Shown in pieces: positions 1-8,452 of a DNA stretch of 8,452 nucleotides. Every line of letters begins with the position of its first letter. The stretch's first letter is position 1. The stretch comes from a virus (Duplodnaviria; Heunggongvirae; Uroviricota; Caudoviricetes), in IMG/VR virus record IMGVR_UViG_2802429224_000005, positions 1-8,452 of that record; one strand, written 5' to 3'. The notes under the pieces are model-generated. The model did not search any database and was not told the origin of the DNA. It was given only the letters and a program-made list of their open reading frames with translations. The position numbers were made by a program, and so were the translations under genes.

Positions 1-3
1 AAG

Positions 4-480
4 ATGGTGGAAATCAATAATCAACGTAAGGCGTTCCTCGATATGCTGGCGTGGTCAGAGGGAACTGATAACGGACGACAGAAAACCAGAAATCATGGTT
101 ATGACGTCATTGTTGGCGGAGAGCTATTCACTGATTACTCCGATCACCCTCGCAAACTTGTCACGCTAAACCCCAAACTCAAATCAACAGCCGCCGGACG
201 TTACCAGCTTCTTTCCCGTTGGTGGGATGCCTACCGTAAGCAGCTTGGCCTGAAAGATTTCTCTCCGAAAAGCCAGGACGCTGTGGCATTGCAGCAGATT
301 AAGGAGCGTGGCGCTTTACCGATGATTGATCGCGGTGATATCCGTCAGGCAATCGACCGTTGCAGCAATATCTGGGCTTCACTGCCGGGCGCTGGTTATG
401 GTCAGTTCGAGCATAAGGCTGACAGCCTGATTGCAAAATTCAAAGAAGCGGGCGGAACGGTCAGAGAGATTGAGGTATGA
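4..480 (+). CDS. R: Phage endolysin, lambda R-type lytic transglycosylase (158 aa)
   Basis: Full-length ORF starting at ATG 4-6. Translation [26 protein letters not shown]... matches my recollection of lambda R almost residue for residue, including the catalytic Glu19 in the AWSEGT context. The stop overlaps the next gene's start as ATGA (477-480), as in lambda lysis cassettes. Confidence 0.93.
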
Positions 481-944
481 GCAGAGTCACCGCGATTATC
501 TCCGCTCTGGTTATCTGCATCATCGTCTGCCTGTCATGGGCTGTTAATCATTACCGTGATAACGCCATCGCCTATAAAGAACAGCGTGATAAAAAAGTCA
601 GTGAGCTGAAGCAGGCGACCGCCACCATTACTGACATGCAGCAGCGCCAGCGTGCTGCTGATGCACTCGATGCTAAATACACGAAGGAGTTAGCTGATGC
701 GAAAGCTGAAAATGATGCTCTTCGGCGCAAGCTTGATAATGGTGGCAGGGTGCTCGTCAAAGGAAAATGCCCTGTGCCATCCTCAGCCGAAACCTCCAGC
801 GCCTCCGGCATGGGCAATGATGCCACCGTCGAACTCTCTCCAGTTGCTGGACGAAACGTTCTCGGTATCCGGGACGGAATTATCCGCGACCAAACAGCAC
901 TGAGAACGCTTCAGGAATACATCAGGACGCAATGCCTTCGATGA
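477..944 (+). CDS. Rz: Rz-type i-spanin (inner-membrane spanin subunit, 155 aa)
   Basis: Immediately follows R with an ATGA overlap; GAGG RBS 5 nt upstream. N-terminal hydrophobic helix ([18 protein letters not shown]), then a charged coiled-coil-like region ([54 protein letters not shown]). The N-terminal half resembles lambda Rz as I recall it. Contains an embedded +1-frame ORF (Rz1). Confidence 0.85.
697..903 (+). CDS. Rz1: Rz1-type o-spanin (outer-membrane lipoprotein spanin subunit, 68 aa), fully embedded in the +1 frame of Rz
   Basis: ORF lies wholly inside Rz in another frame. AAGGAG RBS at 684-689, 7 nt before ATG 697. Product [24 protein letters not shown]... has a lipoprotein signal with a lipobox-like VAGC, followed by a proline-rich stretch ([16 protein letters not shown]) similar to lambda Rz1 (KPPPPPAW). 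Confidence 0.8.
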
Positions 945-1118
945 TAGCGATAATTTTACTCATCATCCTTCACATCTGGCTCTGTAGACAGGGTGGTGCT
1001 TACTTCTGGAGCGAATCCAGATTAAACATCTCATTGCTGATGCTTGAATTTAAGCATATGGCGCGCGGTAAGGGGCTGCGTTGAGACAAGAGCCAGTTCA
1101 TTACAAATACCAGGATTT

Positions 1119-1144
1119 TGCCTCGCATTCGCGGGGCTTTTTTA
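1119..1144 (+). terminator. Candidate rho-independent terminator in the Rz-rha intergenic region
   Basis: GC-rich imperfect hairpin (CCTCGC-ATTC-GCGGGG, about 6 bp stem with one G-U pair) at about 1121-1136, followed directly by a T tract (CTTTTTT, 1137-1143). Not energy-scored. Confidence 0.35.
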
Positions 1145-1287
1145 CATCTGAATTTCACCGCGCATCTCACGCGCATATTAACGAGAGCCTTTCAGTAAGC
1201 GAGCCTGAGAAATGCCGTTATAGGTGGCGACCTCTCTCGGGCGGCTTTTCTGTGAGACAGGCTCACTTTCTAAAAGGTAAAGACGCT

Positions 1288-1812
1288 ATGAATAATCCGT
1301 CAGTTATTCCGGCCTTTGACTTCCGAGAAATGGTGCAAGCTAAAAACGGAGAGGTCGTTACCACATCCAGAAAAGTTGCTACGTACTTCGGAAAGCGACA
1401 CGGTGATGTGCTCAGGAAAATCGAGCAGGTTAAGGCCGATTGCTCAAGAGAGTTTAGCCAACGCAATTTTGCGTCGGCTGATTATATCGATGAGCAGGGT
1501 AAGGTTCGCCCGATGTATAGCCTGACGAAAGATGGCTGGATCATGGTTGTTATGGGATTCACCGGGAAAGCTGCTGCGGCTATCAAAGAAAGCTACATTT
1601 CAGCGTTCAACTGGATGTCTGAGCAACTTAGCCGTCGCCTGGCCATGGGTGAAGAAATGCAGCACCGCTACGCCATCAAAGAAACGCGCTCAAAGTTGAA
1701 GGGAACGATCGGTAGCCGGTTGATGAATGAGCGGAAGAAAGAGAAGCGCGTTCTTGAGCTCGAGCATGAGCACATCATGCAGGTGACGCAGCCAGAATTG
1801 CTGATTGGCTGA
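1288..1812 (+). CDS. rha: Rha-family phage regulatory protein (Phage_pRha domain), 174 aa
   Basis: Translation from ATG 1288 (MNNPSVIPAFDFREMVQAKNGEVVTTSRKVATYFGKRHGDVLRKIEQ...YIDEQGKVRPMYSLTKDGWIMVVMGFTGKAAAAIKESYISAFNWMSEQL) follows the conserved pattern of the Rha N-terminal domain. The six-frame track extends this ORF to 1081, but that extension starts at TTG and runs through the terminator-like hairpin, so I prefer ATG 1288, which has an AAGG purine-rich patch about 10 nt upstream. Confidence 0.8.
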   Translation: MNNPSVIPAFDFREMVQAKNGEVVTTSRKVATYFGKRHGDVLRKIEQVKADCSREFSQRNFASADYIDEQGKVRPMYSLTKDGWIMVVMGFTGKAAAAIKESYISAFNWMSEQLSRRLAMGEEMQHRYAIKETRSKLKGTIGSRLMNERKKEKRVLELEHEHIMQVTQPELLIG

Positions 1813-1878
1813 TTGACATTACAGAAACTCTTCACTGAGGTGCTTGGACAATGGCGCACCTAACGATGCGCCTAAAAC

Positions 1879-2139
1879 TCAACCCCTGTTGAAATTCTCT
1901 TTTGCTTCATTAATGAGATCTGAAGCGATCCGAAAGCTATTAGGGTTGGAATTGCTAATCAAACCTTTAACTGTTTCTTCTAATTCAATCAGCGCCTGAT
2001 TGCTGTGCGCAGACCTTGCAACGTTAGTCAATAAGGCAACCAAAATTGCCTCATGGGCAATGGCATGTTCTTTATCAGTTGTTTCTATGCGAAGCGGGCT
2101 GTTGGATGATCGTAGGCTTGTTTGGTTGAACGAAGACAT
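1879..2139 (-). CDS. Hypothetical protein (86 aa), predicted mostly helical; function unknown
   Basis: Minus-strand ORF with a canonical GGAGG Shine-Dalgarno about 6 nt upstream of the ATG (reverse complement of 2140-2155 reads ...ATATAGGAGGAAGAATG). Convergent with rha and divergent from the small + ORF at 2193. No family recognised by eye. Confidence 0.55.
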   Translation of the reverse strand: MSSFNQTSLRSSNSPLRIETTDKEHAIAHEAILVALLTNVARSAHSNQALIELEETVKGLISNSNPNSFRIASDLINEAKENFNRG

Positions 2140-2192
2140 TCTTCCTCCTATATGTCATTGGTAATTTTAACCGCCTTTGAAGGTATAACACT

Positions 2193-2399
2193 ATGTCCGA
2201 CATCTACCAAATCACGCTAACCACCCAAACAGGCGAAACCTTCACTGGCAAGATGTCACGACGTCAGCATGAGCTGGTTAATGGCTTTGTGCCGCTGGCG
2301 ACCGAGACAGGCGAGTAGCTGTACTTTGCTCCTGGTGATGCGAAGCGCGTGCAGTTCACGCCAGTAGCGGCAGGACAGACAGAGCAAACGACGGAGTAA
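2193..2399 (+). pseudogene. Small phage ORF interrupted by an in-frame amber (TAG) codon: 41 codons to TAG 2316-2318, reading frame stays open a further 26 codons to TAA 2397-2399
   Basis: Translated codon by codon: MSDIYQITLTTQTGETFTGKMSRRQHELVNGFVPLATETGE-[TAG]-LYFAPGDAKRVQFTPVAAGQTEQTTE-[TAA]. Either a 41-aa product, a nonsense-disrupted 68-codon gene, or an amber-suppressible gene. The RBS is weak (GAAGG about 11 nt upstream). Confidence 0.35.
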
Positions 2400-2496
2400 C
2401 CTATGGCTAACGATGGAGAGCCTAGGTAATGTCCGCCAATTATCTTTCCCGACTCTGGCAACTGGCATCCATGAGCCTTTTTACATATGCTGAGTA

Positions 2497-3402
2497 TTAA
2501 CTGATATATCCATGAGCTTTGAGATAATTTTCCGCAATAATCATACCTACTGGATTGATGACTAGTGAGTCAAGTTCTGTAAGGGTTGAAATACCAAAAG
2601 AGTCGAGAACTAATTTTGTAGCTGGGAATGCTTCATAAAATGATGCATCAGATGTAAGAGTGTCATAACCCGTTCTTTTTGATAATAACTCTAAGTAATT
2701 GATATTATATATTTTATCTGAGAAAAATACGCCTTTAATTTCTAATAGCTGCTGATTTAGGCGTTTGAGGGTGAAATGTTCTCCAAGAAATTTTATATAA
2801 TCTGTTTCATAAACAGCATACATTGACCTATGGATCATGTAATTTTCTTCCAAGGAAATGTTAGGTAGTGAAAAATGAGTACTTTTTTTCTCTGCAAGTT
2901 CTGTGATATTTATACTTCCTACCATCTTATTGATTGAACGTAAAAAATATACAAATGCCAAAAACTTAATATCATTAGTGGTCAGTCTGGATGTTGTATC
3001 TAACGCTTGATCGATCAAAATGCTTTGGTCTTCTTGATCGTTTTCAATTTTAGTAACTATTAACTCCTTAAGAAGTTCTGATTTTGCATCAAACCCCTTT
3101 CTTGCGACCTGAACGACTGCTTGATTGAGGGTGTACTGAATATCGGGATCAGCGAGTTTTGCTCTTAGTTTTTCATCAACATCTTTAGATAGTTTTTCTG
3201 CAATTTGGTGACCAAATTCTTGAGCCCGTGAGTCGACTAAAGCGAATGCATCTTCACGAAGCGAAGCCATTTCACTTTTGACCATTAACTGGCAAATAGC
3301 CATGACCTCAGTAGTGGTGTTGCCAAAGTAGGCATCACCTGTAACTTGTATAGCTGAGGAGTTATCACCCACACTTTGACCGGATTTCTCGAATAAGCTC
3401 AT
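2497..3402 (-). CDS. Hypothetical protein (301 aa), downstream gene of an AT-rich two-gene moron operon; no recognisable catalytic motif; candidate effector or sensor of an undescribed exclusion/defence module
   Basis: Long minus-strand ORF in a compositionally distinct AT-rich segment. The start ATG (3402-3400) overlaps the stop TGA (3401-3399) of the upstream small membrane-protein gene as ATGA, implying translational coupling. N-terminus carries GQSVGDNSSAIQVTGDAY, a near-copy of the motif at the C-terminus of the upstream protein. Confidence 0.7.
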   Translation of the reverse strand: MSLFEKSGQSVGDNSSAIQVTGDAYFGNTTTEVMAICQLMVKSEMASLREDAFALVDSRAQEFGHQIAEKLSKDVDEKLRAKLADPDIQYTLNQAVVQVARKGFDAKSELLKELIVTKIENDQEDQSILIDQALDTTSRLTTNDIKFLAFVYFLRSINKMVGSINITELAEKKSTHFSLPNISLEENYMIHRSMYAVYETDYIKFLGEHFTLKRLNQQLLEIKGVFFSDKIYNINYLELLSKRTGYDTLTSDASFYEAFPATKLVLDSFGISTLTELDSLVINPVGMIIAENYLKAHGYIS

Positions 3403-3644
3403 TCTTTGTCCCTTTCATTAATAGTTATGTTGCCACCAATTTGTATACCGCTAGAGTTATCGCCGATTGTTTGGCTAACACCTTGCTCTTTAGCTTTGTT
3501 GCTTTTTAGATTTGCTAAGGCTGTTAGAAAAACGACCAAACTCGCTAATGCTGCTAGCGCTGTGGATAATGTTTGACTGGTTATGGCTTGATAGCCAAAG
3601 CCTAAAGCCGAACAAAAAGATACAAATACGATTAATTTTCTCAC
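3399..3644 (-). CDS. Small predicted membrane protein (about 81 aa, two hydrophobic helices), upstream gene of the two-gene moron operon
   Basis: Minus-strand ORF with a probable GTG start at 3644 preceded by GGAG with a 6-nt spacer (minus strand reads CTGGAGATTTTCGTG). The alternative ATG at 3686 would put the start inside terS. Product VRKLIVFVSFCSALGFGYQAI...LSTALAALASLVVFLTALANL...GVSQTIGDNSSGIQIGGNITINERDKE has two hydrophobic segments and then a soluble tail carrying the shared motif. Confidence 0.6.
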   Translation of the reverse strand: MRKLIVFVSFCSALGFGYQAITSQTLSTALAALASLVVFLTALANLKSNKAKEQGVSQTIGDNSSGIQIGGNITINERDKE

Positions 3645-3665
3645 GAAAATCTCCAGAGATAAAAC

Positions 3666-4193
3666 ATGGCACTTACTGACAAGCAAGAAATGTTCTGTCG
3701 CGAGTACCTCATCGATTTAAACGCCACGCAAGCGGCTATTCGGGCGGGGTACAGCGCAAAGACAGCTAACCGTACCGCATCCGAAAACCTGTCAAAACCT
3801 GACATCAAGTTAAGAATCGCCGAACTGAAAGCGCAACGCAATGATCTTGTTGGTATTAATGCAGAATATGTACTTAATCGCCTTCTTGAAATCGACCAGA
3901 TGGATGTGCTCGACATTCTCCTGCAAAACGGTGAGTTAAAGCCCATTAAAGACTGGCCTAAGGTATGGCGTACAACGCTATCAGGAATGGATGTCGTGGA
4001 GATGGTATCCGCAGATAGTGCCGCACTTCTGAAGAAAATCAAATGGCCTGATAAGGTTAAAAACCTCGAACTTCTTGGTAAGCATGTTTCCGTTCAGGCG
4101 TTTAAAGAACAATCTTCGCACGAGCTAACAGGCAAAGACGGCGGCGCAATTCAGATTGAAACATCACCGATGAGCACTCTATTCGAAAAATGA
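3666..4193 (+). CDS. terS: Terminase small subunit, Terminase_2 (P27-like) family, 175 aa
   Basis: N-terminus MALTDKQEMFCREYLIDLNATQAAIRAGYSAKTANRTASENLSKPDIKLRIAELKAQR matches the conserved signature of Terminase_2-type small subunits (LTxKQxxFCxEYLxDxNATQAAIRAGYS). Stop overlaps the terL start as ATGA (4190-4193). Confidence 0.85.
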   Translation: MALTDKQEMFCREYLIDLNATQAAIRAGYSAKTANRTASENLSKPDIKLRIAELKAQRNDLVGINAEYVLNRLLEIDQMDVLDILLQNGELKPIKDWPKVWRTTLSGMDVVEMVSADSAALLKKIKWPDKVKNLELLGKHVSVQAFKEQSSHELTGKDGGAIQIETSPMSTLFEK

Positions 4194-5605
4194 ACTCGAT
4201 TAATCCTATCTTTGAACCGTTCATTGAGGCGCATCGCTACAAAGTTGCCAAAGGCGGTCGAGGTAGCGGTAAGTCATGGGCAATTGCGAGACTGCTTGTT
4301 GAAGCGGCGCGTCGGCAGCCTGTGCGTATTCTTTGCGCTCGTGAACTGCAAAACAGTATCAGCGATTCGGTAATCCGACTGCTTGAAGACACCATAGAGC
4401 GGGAAGGGTATTCGGCTGAGTTTGAAATTCAGCGTTCAATGATTCGTCATCTCGGAACGAATGCTGAATTCATGTTCTACGGCATAAAAAACAACCCTAC
4501 GAAGATTAAATCGCTCGAAGGCATTGATATCTGCTGGGTGGAAGAAGCGGAAGCGGTAACGAAGGAATCGTGGGATATCCTGATTCCAACCATCCGTAAG
4601 CCGTTCTCTGAAATATGGGTGAGTTTCAACCCGAAAAACATACTCGACGATACCTATCAGCGGTTCGTCGTAAATCCTCCCGATGATATTTGCCTACTGA
4701 CGGTGAACTACACCGACAACCCGCATTTTCCTGAAGTTCTCCGTCTGGAGATGGAAGAGTGCAAACGCAGAAATCCGACACTGTATCGTCACATCTGGCT
4801 TGGTGAGCCAGTAAGCGCAAGTGATATGGCAATCATCAAACGTGAATGGCTTGAAGCTGCAACCGATGCGCACAAGAAACTCGGATGGAAAGCGAAAGGT
4901 GCGGTTGTCTCTGCACATGACCCATCAGATACAGGGTCAGATGCTAAAGGTTATGTATCGCGTCACGGTTCGGTTGTTAAGCGCATTGCCGAAGGTCTGC
5001 TGATGGACATCAACGAGGGTGCTGACTGGGCTACTTCGCTGGCGATTGAAGACGGCGCTGACCATTACCTGTGGGATGGTGATGGTGTTGGTGCCGGGCT
5101 ACGCAGACAGACAACGGAAGCGTTCTCCGGTAAGAAAATCACCGCCACGATGTTCAAGGGCAGCGAATCGCCATTCGATGAAGATGCACCGTATCAGGCC
5201 GGAGCATGGGCTGATGAAGTCGTACAGGGTGACAACGTTCGCACTATTGGTGATGTATTCCGCAATAAGCGAGCGCAATTCTATTACGCACTGGCTGACA
5301 GGCTGTATCTGACATATCGGGCGGTTGTCCACGGTGAGTATGCAGACCCCGACGACATGCTGAGCTTCGATAAAGAAGCGATAGGCGAGAAGATGCTGGA
5401 GAAGCTGTTTGCAGAACTGACGCAGATTCAGCGCAAATTCAATAACAACGGGAAGCTGGAGCTTATGACTAAGGTCGAAATGAAGCAGAAGCTCGGGATC
5501 CCATCTCCTAACCTGGCTGATGCGTTGATGATGTGTATGCATTTTCCGGAGTCGGCTGCGCAACCCGACTATTCTAGTTACTCAATTCCTTGTGGTGTAG
5601 GTTGA
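4190..5605 (+). CDS. terL: Terminase large subunit (ATPase/nuclease), Terminase_3/PBSX-like, 471 aa
   Basis: Walker A-like VAKGGRGSGKS near the N-terminus and Walker B-like acidic motif DICWVEEAE. Size and position directly downstream of terS and upstream of portal are typical. Confidence 0.9.
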   Translation: MNSINPIFEPFIEAHRYKVAKGGRGSGKSWAIARLLVEAARRQPVRILCARELQNSISDSVIRLLEDTIEREGYSAEFEIQRSMIRHLGTNAEFMFYGIKNNPTKIKSLEGIDICWVEEAEAVTKESWDILIPTIRKPFSEIWVSFNPKNILDDTYQRFVVNPPDDICLLTVNYTDNPHFPEVLRLEMEECKRRNPTLYRHIWLGEPVSASDMAIIKREWLEAATDAHKKLGWKAKGAVVSAHDPSDTGSDAKGYVSRHGSVVKRIAEGLLMDINEGADWATSLAIEDGADHYLWDGDGVGAGLRRQTTEAFSGKKITATMFKGSESPFDEDAPYQAGAWADEVVQGDNVRTIGDVFRNKRAQFYYALADRLYLTYRAVVHGEYADPDDMLSFDKEAIGEKMLEKLFAELTQIQRKFNNNGKLELMTKVEMKQKLGIPSPNLADALMMCMHFPESAAQPDYSSYSIPCGVG

Positions 5606-5606
5606 T

Positions 5607-7805
5607 ATGGCAGAAAAAAAGATGACTGACTGGCATCGCAAGGTGCTGTGCAACTTTGATAATGCCTGGTCAGCAACGCAGGATATGCGTGAGCAGATTA
5701 TTGAGGCTCAACGTTTCGTACGGGTGTCCGGCGCACAGTGGGAAGGCAGCACAAACGCTGGTTACTCATTTGATGAAGGCAGGTTTGAGCATTATCCGCG
5801 TTTTGAACTGAATAAGATTGCTCGTGAATGTGATCGCATCATTGGCGAGTATCGGCAGAATCGCATCAGCGTTAAATTCAGGCCGAAGGATGACAAGGCA
5901 TCGGAAGCGTTAGCCGAAAAGATGAACGGCAAATTCCGCGCTGATTATCAGGAAACATCCGGTGGCGAAGCGTGTGATAACGCATTTGATGATGCTGTAA
6001 CGGGCGGATTCGGTTGTTTCCGCATGTGTGCTGATTACGAAGATGAAATGGATCCGAGTAACGAGCAGCGACGCATCAGCCTTCTTCCTGTTTACGACCC
6101 AGCGACATGCGTCTTCTTCGATCAGGACAGCAAGCAATATGACCGCTCTGATGCTATGTGGGCTATGGAAATGTTCTCCATGACGCCTAAAGCGTTCGAG
6201 GCTGAATACCCTGATTCCATCGCGGCAAGTCTTTCTCGTGATGACACTGGCACTCAATATGACTGGTCAACGCCTGATGCCATCTATGTTGGGCGCTACT
6301 ACGAAGTTCGCATAGAGAAGGTGAAGCTCACGGCGTGGCGCAACCCTGTTAGCGGAGAAACGGCAATCTATGATGAAGAGCAAATCAAAGATATTGTCGA
6401 CGAGCTGACCGATGGCGCATTCGAACTGATTGGTGAGCGAACGGTGAAGAAACGCCGCGTTTATTGCGGCCTTCTGTCTGGCGCTGAATGGCTGGAAGAA
6501 CCGAAGCGTATTCCGGGCGAACATATTCCACTCATCCCGGTATATGGGCGTCGCTCATTTGTTGATAATCAGGAGCGAATCGAAGGCCACGCAGCAAAAG
6601 CGATGGATGCACAGCGTCTTGAGAACCTGATGGTTTCCATGATTGCAGATAACGCCACTCAGGCTGGCGGTGATGGTATTCCTATCGTGGATGTTGATTT
6701 TATTCCCGGTCCATTAATGAATCACTGGGCAGAGAGGAATAAGAAAAGACCTGCAGTTCTTCCTATGACCAGCAAGAAGGACAAAAACGGAACAGTCATT
6801 TCAGAAGCTCAGGTTGCTGGCTGGACACCTCCGACACAAATGCCTCCTGCTCTTGCCGGGCTATTGCAGTACACCGGAACGGCTATTCAGCAAATTACAG
6901 GTGCGTCGCAGCTTGAGAACATGCCGAGCAACGTCGCTACCGATACCGTTGATAGTATCTTTAACCGGATGGATACGCAGTCCTATATCTACATGGACAA
7001 CATGGCTAAATCCATGCGCCGCGCTGGCGTCGTGTGGCTTTCTATGGCTCGTGAAGTCTATGGCAGCGATACGCCAATGCGCATCGTTAATGAGGACGGC
7101 AGCGATGACGTGGCGCTAATGACTGGTGAAGTGGTTGACCGTCAGACAGGGCAGGTTATCGCGCTTAACGACCTTTCGCAGGGTAACTATGAAGTGACTG
7201 TCGATGTCGGTCAGTCGTTCGCTACTCGCCGTGATGCAACGGTTAAGTCGTTACTTTCCATGCTGGCACTTATCCCGCCAGGGACGCCGAAGCACGACCT
7301 TGTATCGTCGATGATTCTCGACAATATGGACGGCGAAGGGATGGACGACCTTAAAGAATACAACCGCAATCAGTTGCTTCTGTCTGGCGTTATCAAGCCG
7401 AGAACGCCTGAAGAACAGCAGATGGTTGAACAGGCGAAACAACAACAGGCCAGTCAGCCAGATCCGGCTATGGTTGCAGCGCAAGGTCAGCTTCTTGCTG
7501 GTCAGGCTGAATTGCAGAAAGCGCAGAACGAACAGGCAGCCATTCAGGTTAAAGCATTCCAGGCACAGACTGATGCTCAGGTTGCAGCGGCAAATGTTGT
7601 GAAAATCCTCGCATCTGCCGATAGTCAGCAGAAATCTGATATCCGCGAGGCTCTGAAACTGCTCGGACAGTTCCAGCAACAGCAAGGAGATAATGCCCGT
7701 GCTGATGCAGAGCTTGTCCTGAAAAGTCAGGCACAGGGCCATGCGCAGCGCATGGACATCAGCAGCATCCTGCAAAAATCAACTCAGCAACAACCACAGC
7801 AGTAA
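5607..7805 (+). CDS. Portal protein, P22 gp1-like, 732 aa, with a Gln/Ala-rich C-terminal helical extension
   Basis: Several blocks match P22 portal as I recall it (RRRVY, PGEHIPLIPVYG, PRTPEEQQ, DPAMVAAQGQLLAGQAELQKAQN, ARADAELVLK, QRMDISSILQ), and length is close to the 725-aa P22 gp1. Starts 1 nt after the terL stop. Confidence 0.92.
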   Translation: MAEKKMTDWHRKVLCNFDNAWSATQDMREQIIEAQRFVRVSGAQWEGSTNAGYSFDEGRFEHYPRFELNKIARECDRIIGEYRQNRISVKFRPKDDKASEALAEKMNGKFRADYQETSGGEACDNAFDDAVTGGFGCFRMCADYEDEMDPSNEQRRISLLPVYDPATCVFFDQDSKQYDRSDAMWAMEMFSMTPKAFEAEYPDSIAASLSRDDTGTQYDWSTPDAIYVGRYYEVRIEKVKLTAWRNPVSGETAIYDEEQIKDIVDELTDGAFELIGERTVKKRRVYCGLLSGAEWLEEPKRIPGEHIPLIPVYGRRSFVDNQERIEGHAAKAMDAQRLENLMVSMIADNATQAGGDGIPIVDVDFIPGPLMNHWAERNKKRPAVLPMTSKKDKNGTVISEAQVAGWTPPTQMPPALAGLLQYTGTAIQQITGASQLENMPSNVATDTVDSIFNRMDTQSYIYMDNMAKSMRRAGVVWLSMAREVYGSDTPMRIVNEDGSDDVALMTGEVVDRQTGQVIALNDLSQGNYEVTVDVGQSFATRRDATVKSLLSMLALIPPGTPKHDLVSSMILDNMDGEGMDDLKEYNRNQLLLSGVIKPRTPEEQQMVEQAKQQQASQPDPAMVAAQGQLLAGQAELQKAQNEQAAIQVKAFQAQTDAQVAAANVVKILASADSQQKSDIREALKLLGQFQQQQGDNARADAELVLKSQAQGHAQRMDISSILQKSTQQQPQQ

Positions 7806-7895
7806 TTAACCCATAACGTGCAATGGCTGTCTTTATGAGGCCTTGCACCCTATTGCCTTCCGATGGGCTGAACATCGAGTAAACAGGGGTAACAA

Positions 7896-8452
<557 letters not shown>

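Follow-up and report, generated by a model that had tools for sequence, protein, structure and literature searches.

Introduction

The lambda prophage carries a two-gene system, RexA/RexB, classically described as a cytoplasmic sensor and a membrane-depolarising effector that bring about abortive infection (Abi). RexB has four transmembrane (TM) helices, and to our knowledge no shared terminal motif is known for the Rex proteins. Another layout has been described for the Escherichia coli Bab/Agp pair, an Abi system of a prophage hotspot in which an amyloid motif of ~20 amino acids is common to the C-terminus of the effector and the N-terminus of the adjacent sensor; this motif transmits the phage-triggered death signal (bioRxiv 10.1101/2024.11.07.622273). 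Moreover, a G-phi-Q-phi-G core has been reported for the RHIM, PP and BASS3 motifs (bioRxiv 10.1101/2020.01.06.895854). Here, we describe a two-gene cassette in IMG/VR virus record IMGVR_UViG_2802429224_000005 (Caudoviricetes), of which positions 1 to 8,452 were analysed (the whole stretch of 8,452 nucleotides (nt) is hereafter called the window). The window corresponds to the start of the late region of a lambdoid/P22-like prophage, and the cassette encodes a small, putative membrane protein and a larger partner that share a motif at their facing termini. We propose that it may be a prophage-borne abortive-infection cassette with motif-mediated coupling of a sensor to a membrane effector, a reading to which we give a probability of roughly 50%.

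A small gene and a large gene share a terminal motif

The two genes are antisense to the late genes, and 21 nt separate the start of the small gene from the ATG of terS. The features of the cassette are as follows.

2473..3665, minus strand: whole cassette, junction to junction, including a short leader of its own, as delimited by GC change-points and homology breakpoints
2497..3402, minus strand: large gene, 301 amino acids, LPO_1073/Vpar_1526 family
3399..3644, minus strand: small gene, 81 amino acids, GTG start
3399..3402, minus strand: ATGA, shared by the end of the small gene and the start of the large gene, by which the two are translationally coupled
3651..3654, minus strand: Shine-Dalgarno sequence GGAG, 6 nt upstream of the small-gene GTG
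3417..3473, minus strand: copy of the shared motif near the small-protein C-terminus (residues 58-76, QTIGDNSSGIQIGGNITIN), with G-I-Q-I-G inside it
3322..3381, minus strand: copy of the shared motif near the large-protein N-terminus (residues 8-27, GQSVGDNSSAIQVTGDAYFG), modelled as disordered in the monomer
2938..3318, minus strand: conserved helical N-domain of the large protein, residues 29-155, with an invariant PD.Q...N..V.QVARKG..KS block in the alignment
2500..2937, minus strand: variable C-terminal domain of the large protein, residues 156-301, delimited by column entropy and synonymous substitution rate (dS)

The small gene was found directly upstream of the large gene at 25 of the 25 distinct loci examined. 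These loci were drawn from 20 tabulated ones (Enterobacterales and close viral contigs), Serratia L017 and L018, and the distant L035-L038 (L039 and L040 repeat L038). The overlap of 4 nt between the two genes was present in 20 of the 21 tabulated rows, which represent 20 distinct loci, the extra row being the truncated L034.

The tail of the small protein, QTIGDNSSGIQIGGNITIN, matches an N-terminal stretch of the large protein, QSVGDNSSAIQVTGD. In local alignments of tail and N-terminus, all nine pairs tested scored above their shuffled controls (z = 4.1-11.2), with z = 7.1 for the pair of the window. Adjacent genes with one motif at the effector C-terminus and the partner N-terminus are the arrangement by which amyloid-signalling pairs are recognised. 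Cognate motif pairs scored higher than non-cognate ones (mean 53.0 vs 45.8; permutation p = 0.005), an excess driven by distant pairs such as QKGGDNSTNIQAG and QKGGDNSENLQAA of L038.

Positions Q58, I60, S64, G66, Q68, G70, G71 and I75 of the tail motif are invariant. For the large protein, 133 full-length family representatives yielded the N-terminal consensus Q-x-V-G-D-N/G-S-T-A-I-Q-A-G-G-N/D-V-T-I; a relaxed core pattern was present in 66 of the 133, and two controls gave 4 and 11. Visible variants account for most of the misses. Throughout the family, the motif stands at a constant distance from the PDIQ anchor. Both motif segments were predicted to be disordered in monomer models.

With the Pfam RHIM profile (PF12721), the segment SGIQIGGNIT of the small-protein tail gave a sub-threshold match (12.8 bits for a cutoff of 20, E = 0.088), and no match was found in orthologous tails or in the large-protein N-terminus. 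The motif was therefore not assigned to a described amyloid-motif family, the comparison being with the Pfam RHIM profile. A likeness to the curli CsgA repeat (Q-x-G-x-G-N-S-A-x-x-x-Q), noticed by eye, was dropped when a permissive Pfam scan returned no Curlin_rpt.

The small protein is predicted to be a membrane hairpin

The start of the small gene is most plausibly the GTG at 3644, which gives 81 amino acids; orthologues open with VRKLI or MRKLI, and PGAP annotates the 246-nt version in the Rb-23 prophage. A TTG start at 3686, which would give 95 amino acids, was rejected, as it overlaps terS, has no Shine-Dalgarno sequence and is unconserved in orthologues.

The AlphaFold2 (AF2) model of the small protein consists of two helices, residues 2-23 and 26-53, with a predicted local distance difference test score (pLDDT) of ~90, and a tail at ~50. 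Hydropathy likewise gave two TM-like stretches. The N-terminus carries positive charges, as does the segment that directly follows helix 2; the inter-helix turn is uncharged. Given this charge pattern, the positive-inside rule predicts an N-in/C-in topology with a cytoplasmic tail. No Pfam domain was found in the small protein, and the PHROG matches of the two cassette proteins were restricted to phrog_19542 and phrog_27656, both of unknown function. The small proteins of Pantoea and Serratia are 80-86% identical to that of the window. Both genes of the cassette are under purifying selection, with nonsynonymous-to-synonymous rate ratios (dN/dS) of 0.15-0.52, and those of the large gene lie at 0.30-0.36.

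The large protein combines a conserved half with a diversifying half

The large protein matches the NCBIfam model NF045477 (LPO_1073/Vpar_1526) over residues 27-295 with 97.5 bits (cutoff 45), which places it in this family; RefSeq gives the identical gene the same family name. Precomputed annotation assigns PF28206 to the identical protein (P0001) and to each of the 63 homologues; our Pfam scan of both cassette proteins found no family, and no NTPase, TPR or PIN match was found for the large protein. It models in AF2 as an all-alpha protein (predicted template modelling score 0.75) with residues 1-28 at pLDDT <50, and no TM-like segment was detected by hydropathy, pointing to a cytoplasmic protein.

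The two halves of the large protein differ markedly in conservation. Among Enterobacterales homologues with at least 52% overall identity, the N-domain is 64-95% identical and the C-terminal half 29-60% (84% in the closest, P0002). In P0016, P0017, P0029 and P0036, identity is 93% in the motif region, 79-82% in the N-domain and 29-36% in the C-terminal domain. Column entropy is 1.7-2.5 bits at residues 161-280 and 1.24 at 281-300, compared with 0.6-1.3 in the N-terminal half. Relative to the Klebsiella copy (L013), dS is 0.09 in the small gene, 0.56 in the N-half of the large gene and ~1.6 in its C-half, the last value being inflated by an ungapped comparison with a 1-codon offset. This rise of dS along the cassette indicates a recombination breakpoint inside the large gene, the C-terminal domain having been exchanged between alleles. 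Conservation thus declines from the small protein and the motif to the N-domain, and far more steeply to the C-domain, as would be expected for a conserved effector/signalling half joined to a diversifying sensor. We propose the C-terminal domain as a sensor or specificity domain.

A family profile search collected 1,541 representatives at 50% identity (E <= 0.001), mostly matched at positions 5-160. The LPO_1073/Vpar_1526 family is large and named, without an assigned function. No mention of LPO_1073, PF28206 or the RefSeq accessions was found in a literature search. The sole literature appearance found for Vpar_1526 is its recovery in Veillonella parvula membrane fractions, in a proteomics table (PMC5491611), a weak hint of membrane association.

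Fused relatives carry hairpin or nuclease modules

Natural fusions that place other modules on the same polypeptide as the family domain were found in four homologues.

P0201: two TM helices, two motif copies and the domain
P0171: a single TM helix followed by the motif and the domain
P0168 and P0200: N-terminal HNH nuclease, motif-like linker and the domain

Residues 12-108 of P0168 matched PDB 9om4, 'HNH endonuclease', with E = 2.3e-9, which identifies them as an HNH domain. The same domain also matched the HNH-SAVED chains 7rwm, 7rwk and 8ysq, which are CBASS Cap5-type effectors, with E of about 2e-8 (E values overall 2e-9 to 4e-8). For P0200, the Pfam HNH_2 match was sub-threshold (19.4 bits vs 21). 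The family thus combines its conserved part (motif and helical domain) and a variable C-terminal domain with one of several interchangeable and potentially lethal modules, a membrane hairpin or a nuclease, placed N-terminally or encoded in trans. The small membrane partner, obligate at the loci examined, the shared terminal motif and the nuclease fusions are previously unreported, and they make the function of the family testable.

The cassette occupies a variable slot upstream of terS

The junctions of the cassette and the genes on either side are listed below.

2193-2399, plus strand: phrog_6581-type small gene (PHROG E = 2e-20), left neighbour of the cassette
2473..2496: left junction, past the stop codon of the large gene (GC change-point 2471; homology end 2472)
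3645..3665: right junction, 21 nt between two divergent starts, that of the small gene and the ATG of terS (alignment; BLAST breakpoints 3645, 3657 and 3666)
3666-4193, plus strand: terS (Terminase_2; Pfam PF03592, E = 1e-39), fixed right neighbour of the slot

On the left, homology to cassette-free relatives stops at position 2386 or 2472; on the right, it restarts at 3645, 3657 or 3666. The junctions are therefore located at ~2473-2496 and 3645-3665; the initial annotation had suggested looking for them near 2400-2500 and 3645-3665, slightly off these ranges. It had also suggested that closely related prophages might display an empty site. A relative that lacks the cassette but has identical flanks was not found, nor was an insertion scar: the closest phages, phiv205-1, Kapi1, CUS-3 and HK620, which do not have the cassette, match positions 1-1806 or less and then from ~4119, and thus differ throughout 1807-4118. 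A further candidate, the GB089 prophage, in which the slot is empty and the left-hand small gene leads straight to terS, was rejected as a clean empty site, as its terS differs. Searches for direct or inverted repeats flanking the cassette returned only short repeats at chance level. Because no repeats bracket the cassette and it lies inside the mosaic segment 1807-4118, which takes in most of terS, the picture is more that of one module taking the place of another in a cargo slot than of a simple insertion. The cassette would thus be a moron-type module that recombination exchanges at this conserved slot.

Positions 1-4108 of the window are 98.5% identical to the E. coli Rb-23 prophage, which then has another terL and head/tail module. 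The combination of the window itself recurs in the viral metagenome contigs L022 and L023 (97.4% over 489-8340). A mosaic joint lies at 4108-4119, in the 3' end of terS, and 4119-8340 matches the terL-portal module of Sf6, CUS-3 and phiv205-1; the complete terS-terL-portal combination is also found in E. coli SCU-124 (L007). Because of the position of this joint, terL is accompanied by the last ~25 codons of terS, as would be the case if these encoded a terL-binding segment.

About 190 further E. coli genomes match solely from ~3647 rightward, that is, from the start of terS. Directly upstream of terS, these genomes encode a 78-amino-acid hypothetical protein, a YkgJ-family protein, or DUF6953 and YodC on the minus strand. 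Different minus-strand genes also fill the slot of the M10 and 23CRST004 prophages, which share the left-hand small gene, and hypothetical proteins of 112 and 170 amino acids (minus strand) are among the alternative cargo. A fixed position that holds the cassette, other cargo or nothing is as in a moron, and the element is very probably an accessory cassette in a cargo slot, located between the lysis/Rha region and terS. The slot immediately upstream of terS in lambdoid/P22-like prophages could be mined for more accessory or defence genes.

The first ~85 nt of terS (3666-3750) are invariant in five prophages with four cargos, and the remainder of terS is 89-96% identical. Upstream of the terS ATG, prophages with different cargos lose their similarity within 10-20 nt. 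The invariant terS start could be a recombination boundary sequence, or home to an antisense promoter for any cargo of the slot.

A weak resemblance (75.6% over 82 nt, E = 2e-9) was found between the segment 2391-2472 and the 5' end of a gene annotated 'putative metallopeptidase', which the E. coli M10 prophage carries on the right-hand side of its cargo (L009, 4211-4292). The segment is probably a relic of an earlier packaging-side module remaining at the left junction. The phrog_6581-type gene has an internal stop after 41 codons and is annotated by PGAP as 'internal stop'/pseudogene in Rb-23; intact homologues stand before the cargo slot in M10, 23CRST004 and GB089.

The cassette is found in diverse prophages and outside them

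The cassette was present in 13 of 5,426 complete E. coli genomes, the closest copies being >99% identical. It occurs in prophages with unrelated head/tail modules of Escherichia, Leclercia, Klebsiella and Providencia, and more copies were found in Enterobacter and Pantoea genomes. A scan of genome contigs with back-translated patterns, which are narrow, returned 2 loci.

In Serratia marcescens (L016-L018, 6255-10863), the pair lies outside a prophage, beside an IS3-type transposase and a pair of genes each encoding a helix-turn-helix (HTH) protein, and adjoins Aldedh/AA_kinase (proA/proB-like), Crl and FrsA-like genes. Such a setting suggests a hotspot for chromosomal islands. A distant pair of 60 and 362 amino acids stands just upstream of an integrase in L038 (GCA_040792085.1, 342-8607). 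Other products of this small integrative element are a capsid protein, an S78 protease and an AAA_25 protein; given this satellite-like layout, the cassette is also carried by non-prophage mobile elements.

The cassette is a compositional island

The GC content of 2497-3644 is 36.3%, vs 49.6% for the remainder of the window. The initial annotation had contrasted 60-nt samples at 32-37% GC inside the operon with about 60% in terL. Recomputed, the operon samples were exact (36.7% at 2521-2580 and 31.7% at 2881-2940), as was the terL sample (60.0% at 4261-4320); the latter is a local peak of a gene with a mean of 50.1%. The true contrast is therefore ~36% vs ~50%, and not 32-37% vs 60%.

In 200-nt windows, GC content reaches a minimum of 30-31% at 2601-3100 and is 37-45% until ~3700, with flanks at 45-56%. 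The lowest-GC 1148-nt window of the entire sequence begins at 2491 (36.2%); outside the island, windows of this size range from 46.9 to 52.1% (mean 50.1, standard deviation 1.3). When a two-state change-point search was left free to choose any position, it placed the limits of the shift at 2471 and 3695, in keeping with the earlier statement that it tracks the operon (2497-3660). GC content at third codon positions (GC3) is 29.1% in the large gene and 30.5% in the small gene, compared with 46.6-62.3% in flanking plus-strand genes.

The trinucleotide distance of the cassette from the rest of the window was large (z = 10.4 against 51 control windows). Corrected for GC content, the tetranucleotide distance gave z = 3.8 and the dinucleotide distance merely z = 1.7. 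Synonymous codon choice in the cassette fits the usage of flanking genes more poorly than does that of any flanking structural or lysis gene. Thus, when sliding-window GC, codon and k-mer analyses were run across the whole window, as the initial annotation had advised, a clear compositional difference from the flanking phage genes was obtained; the anomaly is genuine, well above chance, and agrees with the gene boundaries. A base composition unlike that of neighbouring phage genes is a further trait that the cassette shares with morons. The island alone is ordinary, as AT-rich accessory genes abound in prophages.

Other genes of the window

The remaining features of the window are as follows.

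4-480: endolysin (R)
477-944, plus strand: Rz
697-903, plus strand: Rz1 outer-membrane spanin, embedded in Rz in the +1 frame, with a lipoprotein signal and cysteine; the CUS-3 equivalent is annotated Rz1
ending at 1812: Rha-family regulator
1879-2139, minus strand: unannotated open reading frame (ORF) of 86 amino acids, 'hypothetical protein' in RefSeq
4190-5605: terL
5607-7805: portal
right-hand end: scaffold gene, of which the window holds only the start

No family was found for the 1879-2139 ORF in Pfam or PHROG searches. It sits in a weaker GC dip (42% GC; 41.5-43.5% at 1801-2200 in 200-nt windows) and may be another small accessory gene.

Discussion

We infer for this cassette an anti-phage function, sensor and effector roles for its two proteins and their motif-driven co-assembly, be it amyloid or not. 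A defence or abortive-infection function is slightly favoured, and motif-mediated coupling of the two proteins is about evenly balanced between yes and no. Being antisense, the cassette would not depend on late transcription for its expression and could, for instance, be active in the lysogen. The large protein would act as a sensor or switch, its variable C-terminal domain recognising a cue of the infecting phage. Upon activation, the disordered N-terminal motifs would self-associate and recruit the matching tails of small proteins, and the membrane hairpins would cluster into a lesion, so that the cell is depolarised or permeabilised and the infection aborted. In the fused relatives, the same motif step would gather nuclease domains. 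If this proposal is correct, the cassette would be a second, sequence-unrelated example of the Bab/Agp logic in E. coli, and a minimal system of 81 + 301 amino acids for studying how a short disordered motif relays an immune signal to the membrane.

The pair did not correspond to a catalogued defence system. In PADLOC-DB v2.0.0, which covers systems up to 2023, the large protein had no match at E up to 1, and the small protein matched the 2TM effector PDLC00709 only marginally (E = 0.042, 11.5 bits), which does not identify it as a known defence component. Searches of the prophage-defence literature found no description of the small/large pair.

Three observations weigh against motif-coupled abortive infection as proposed here. 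The motif is kept in the fusions, where recruitment in trans would be needless; the co-variation signal between cognate motifs is modest; and a consensus-only scan found no sigma-70-like site on the minus strand at 3645-3800. With the same kind of scan, no terminator-like site was found downstream of 2497. Because only 21 nt lie between the divergent starts, any promoter of the cassette would be within the terS coding sequence. Two arrangements, TTGACA (3795-3790)-15 nt-TACGGT and TTGCTT (3685-3680)-17 nt-TTTATC, were not adopted as promoters, being poor candidates by eye.

Several other explanations of the pair were considered. The hairpin could be a membrane toxin and the large protein its antidote or regulator, bound through the motif, so that the cassette stabilises the prophage or island by addiction. 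Small hydrophobic proteins are commonly toxins, the two genes are tightly coupled and travel on mobile elements, in one case beside an insertion sequence, and the motif match would be a specific pairing of the two proteins. A fast-diversifying, recombining C-terminal domain is, however, hard to square with a simple antidote, and single-polypeptide HNH fusions cannot act as a toxin with a separate antitoxin; we regard a toxin-antitoxin system as unlikely, bearing in mind that the border between toxin-antitoxin and Abi systems is blurred, so that this explanation overlaps the Abi model. Persistence of the motif in single-chain fusions would also suit a shared motif that is a relic of partial duplication, from which short low-complexity Q/N/G/S segments can come, or a site for a third party (protease, chaperone or membrane) instead of a device for mutual assembly. 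A relic would decay, whereas both termini keep the motif, with invariant positions, in very distant pairs, and the motifs resemble each other more within cognate pairs than in non-cognate combinations; such an origin therefore seems decidedly unlikely.

Many prophage exclusion proteins are small membrane proteins, and the cassette, which encodes one, lies near the lysis genes (R, Rz and Rz1 at 4-944), as might be expected if the hairpin blocked DNA entry or modulated the holin or spanin, with the large protein as an accessory. The orientation of the cassette, antisense to the late/lysis operon, its occurrence with unrelated lysis cassettes and outside prophages, the HNH fusions, which suggest a cytoplasmic killing or degrading output and not an entry block, and the cytoplasmic location predicted for the small-protein tail under the positive-inside rule all make non-suicidal superinfection exclusion or a role in lysis timing quite improbable. 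The last explanation is that the low GC content merely records a recent transfer into the phage from a low-GC donor, without further significance. A GC3 of ~30% vs ~50% in neighbouring genes, a patchy distribution and the >99% identity of the closest copies in the 13 E. coli genomes would agree with this. Yet the cassette has 33-40% GC, with flanks at 40-57%, in every host examined, even for copies at 32-42% protein identity (intact pairs of the main locus table together with Leclercia, Klebsiella, Serratia and Providencia; the truncated L034 has 40.3%). Because low GC is found in all hosts and in diverged copies, it is a long-standing property of the cassette and not a sign of recent import. 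No low-GC donor lineage was identified, and the nearest relatives are all from Enterobacterales; recent transfer is thus very unlikely to be the whole explanation. Of the initial proposal of horizontal acquisition from a lower-GC donor, the part that stands is that of an accessory cassette, gained and lost without regard to the phage genes around it; a simple insertion was not shown, and the lower-GC donor was not borne out.

Beyond the Abi function proposed for the cassette itself, the pair could be the founding example of a widespread class of motif-coupled (amyloid- or RHIM-like) abortive-infection systems with a non-NLR Vpar_1526 sensor, which we consider doubtful. In such a class, the N-terminal Q-x-V-G-D-N-S-T-A-I-Q-A-G-G-N would template or recruit the matching tail of a minimal two-helix membrane effector, and interchangeable TM or HNH-nuclease effectors would be fused directly in 'all-in-one' relatives. 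If true, amyloid-type immune signalling would be extended to a family of 1,541 representatives across many bacteria and prophages.

Comparison with known systems

No homology to Bab/Agp or RexAB was found for the cassette proteins. The cassette is like Bab/Agp (BASS11), the Bell/NLR BASS pairs and fungal HET-S/NWD2 in having adjacent genes, with the C-terminal motif of a small membrane-targeting protein matching the N-terminus of its partner. With Bab/Agp, it also shares a prophage-hotspot location and, within the family, 'all-in-one' versions on a single polypeptide. The motif is rich in G, N and Q with several glycines, like BASS motifs, and G-I-Q-I-G of the small-protein copy fits G-phi-Q-phi-G, whereas the copy of the large protein reads A-phi-Q-phi-x-G and departs from this core. 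In contrast to BASS pairs, the effector is a two-TM hairpin and not a Bell/HeLo helical domain, and its partner is a Vpar_1526 protein of 301 amino acids and not an NLR or a TPR-GreA/B-PIN (TGP) protein. Moreover, all-in-one NLRs, as described, do not need the motif, whereas the Vpar_1526 fusions retain it.

Lambdoid morons, which are accessory genes lodged among essential genes of the late region, resemble the cassette in their presence or absence among similar phages, deviant composition and orientation independent of the late operon; unlike them, it has no own sigma-70-type promoter or intrinsic terminator identifiable in a consensus scan. As in CBASS Cap5, some Vpar_1526 members have an N-terminal HNH domain, homologous to that of HNH-SAVED proteins (E ~1e-8), and CBASS also shares the layout with an N-terminal effector and a C-terminal regulator, in which nuclease and TM effectors interchange. 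Unlike CBASS, the cassette has no SAVED domain, cyclase or nucleotide signal. RexAB differs in gene order, which is reversed, in the two TM helices of the small protein of the cassette, and in location, the cassette being in the lysis-terS slot and not in the immunity region; both systems are prophage-encoded and consist of a cytoplasmic protein of ~280-300 amino acids and a small polytopic inner-membrane protein. By analogy, the cassette thus appears to resemble an amyloid-signalling pair in its layout and lambda RexAB in the types of its components.

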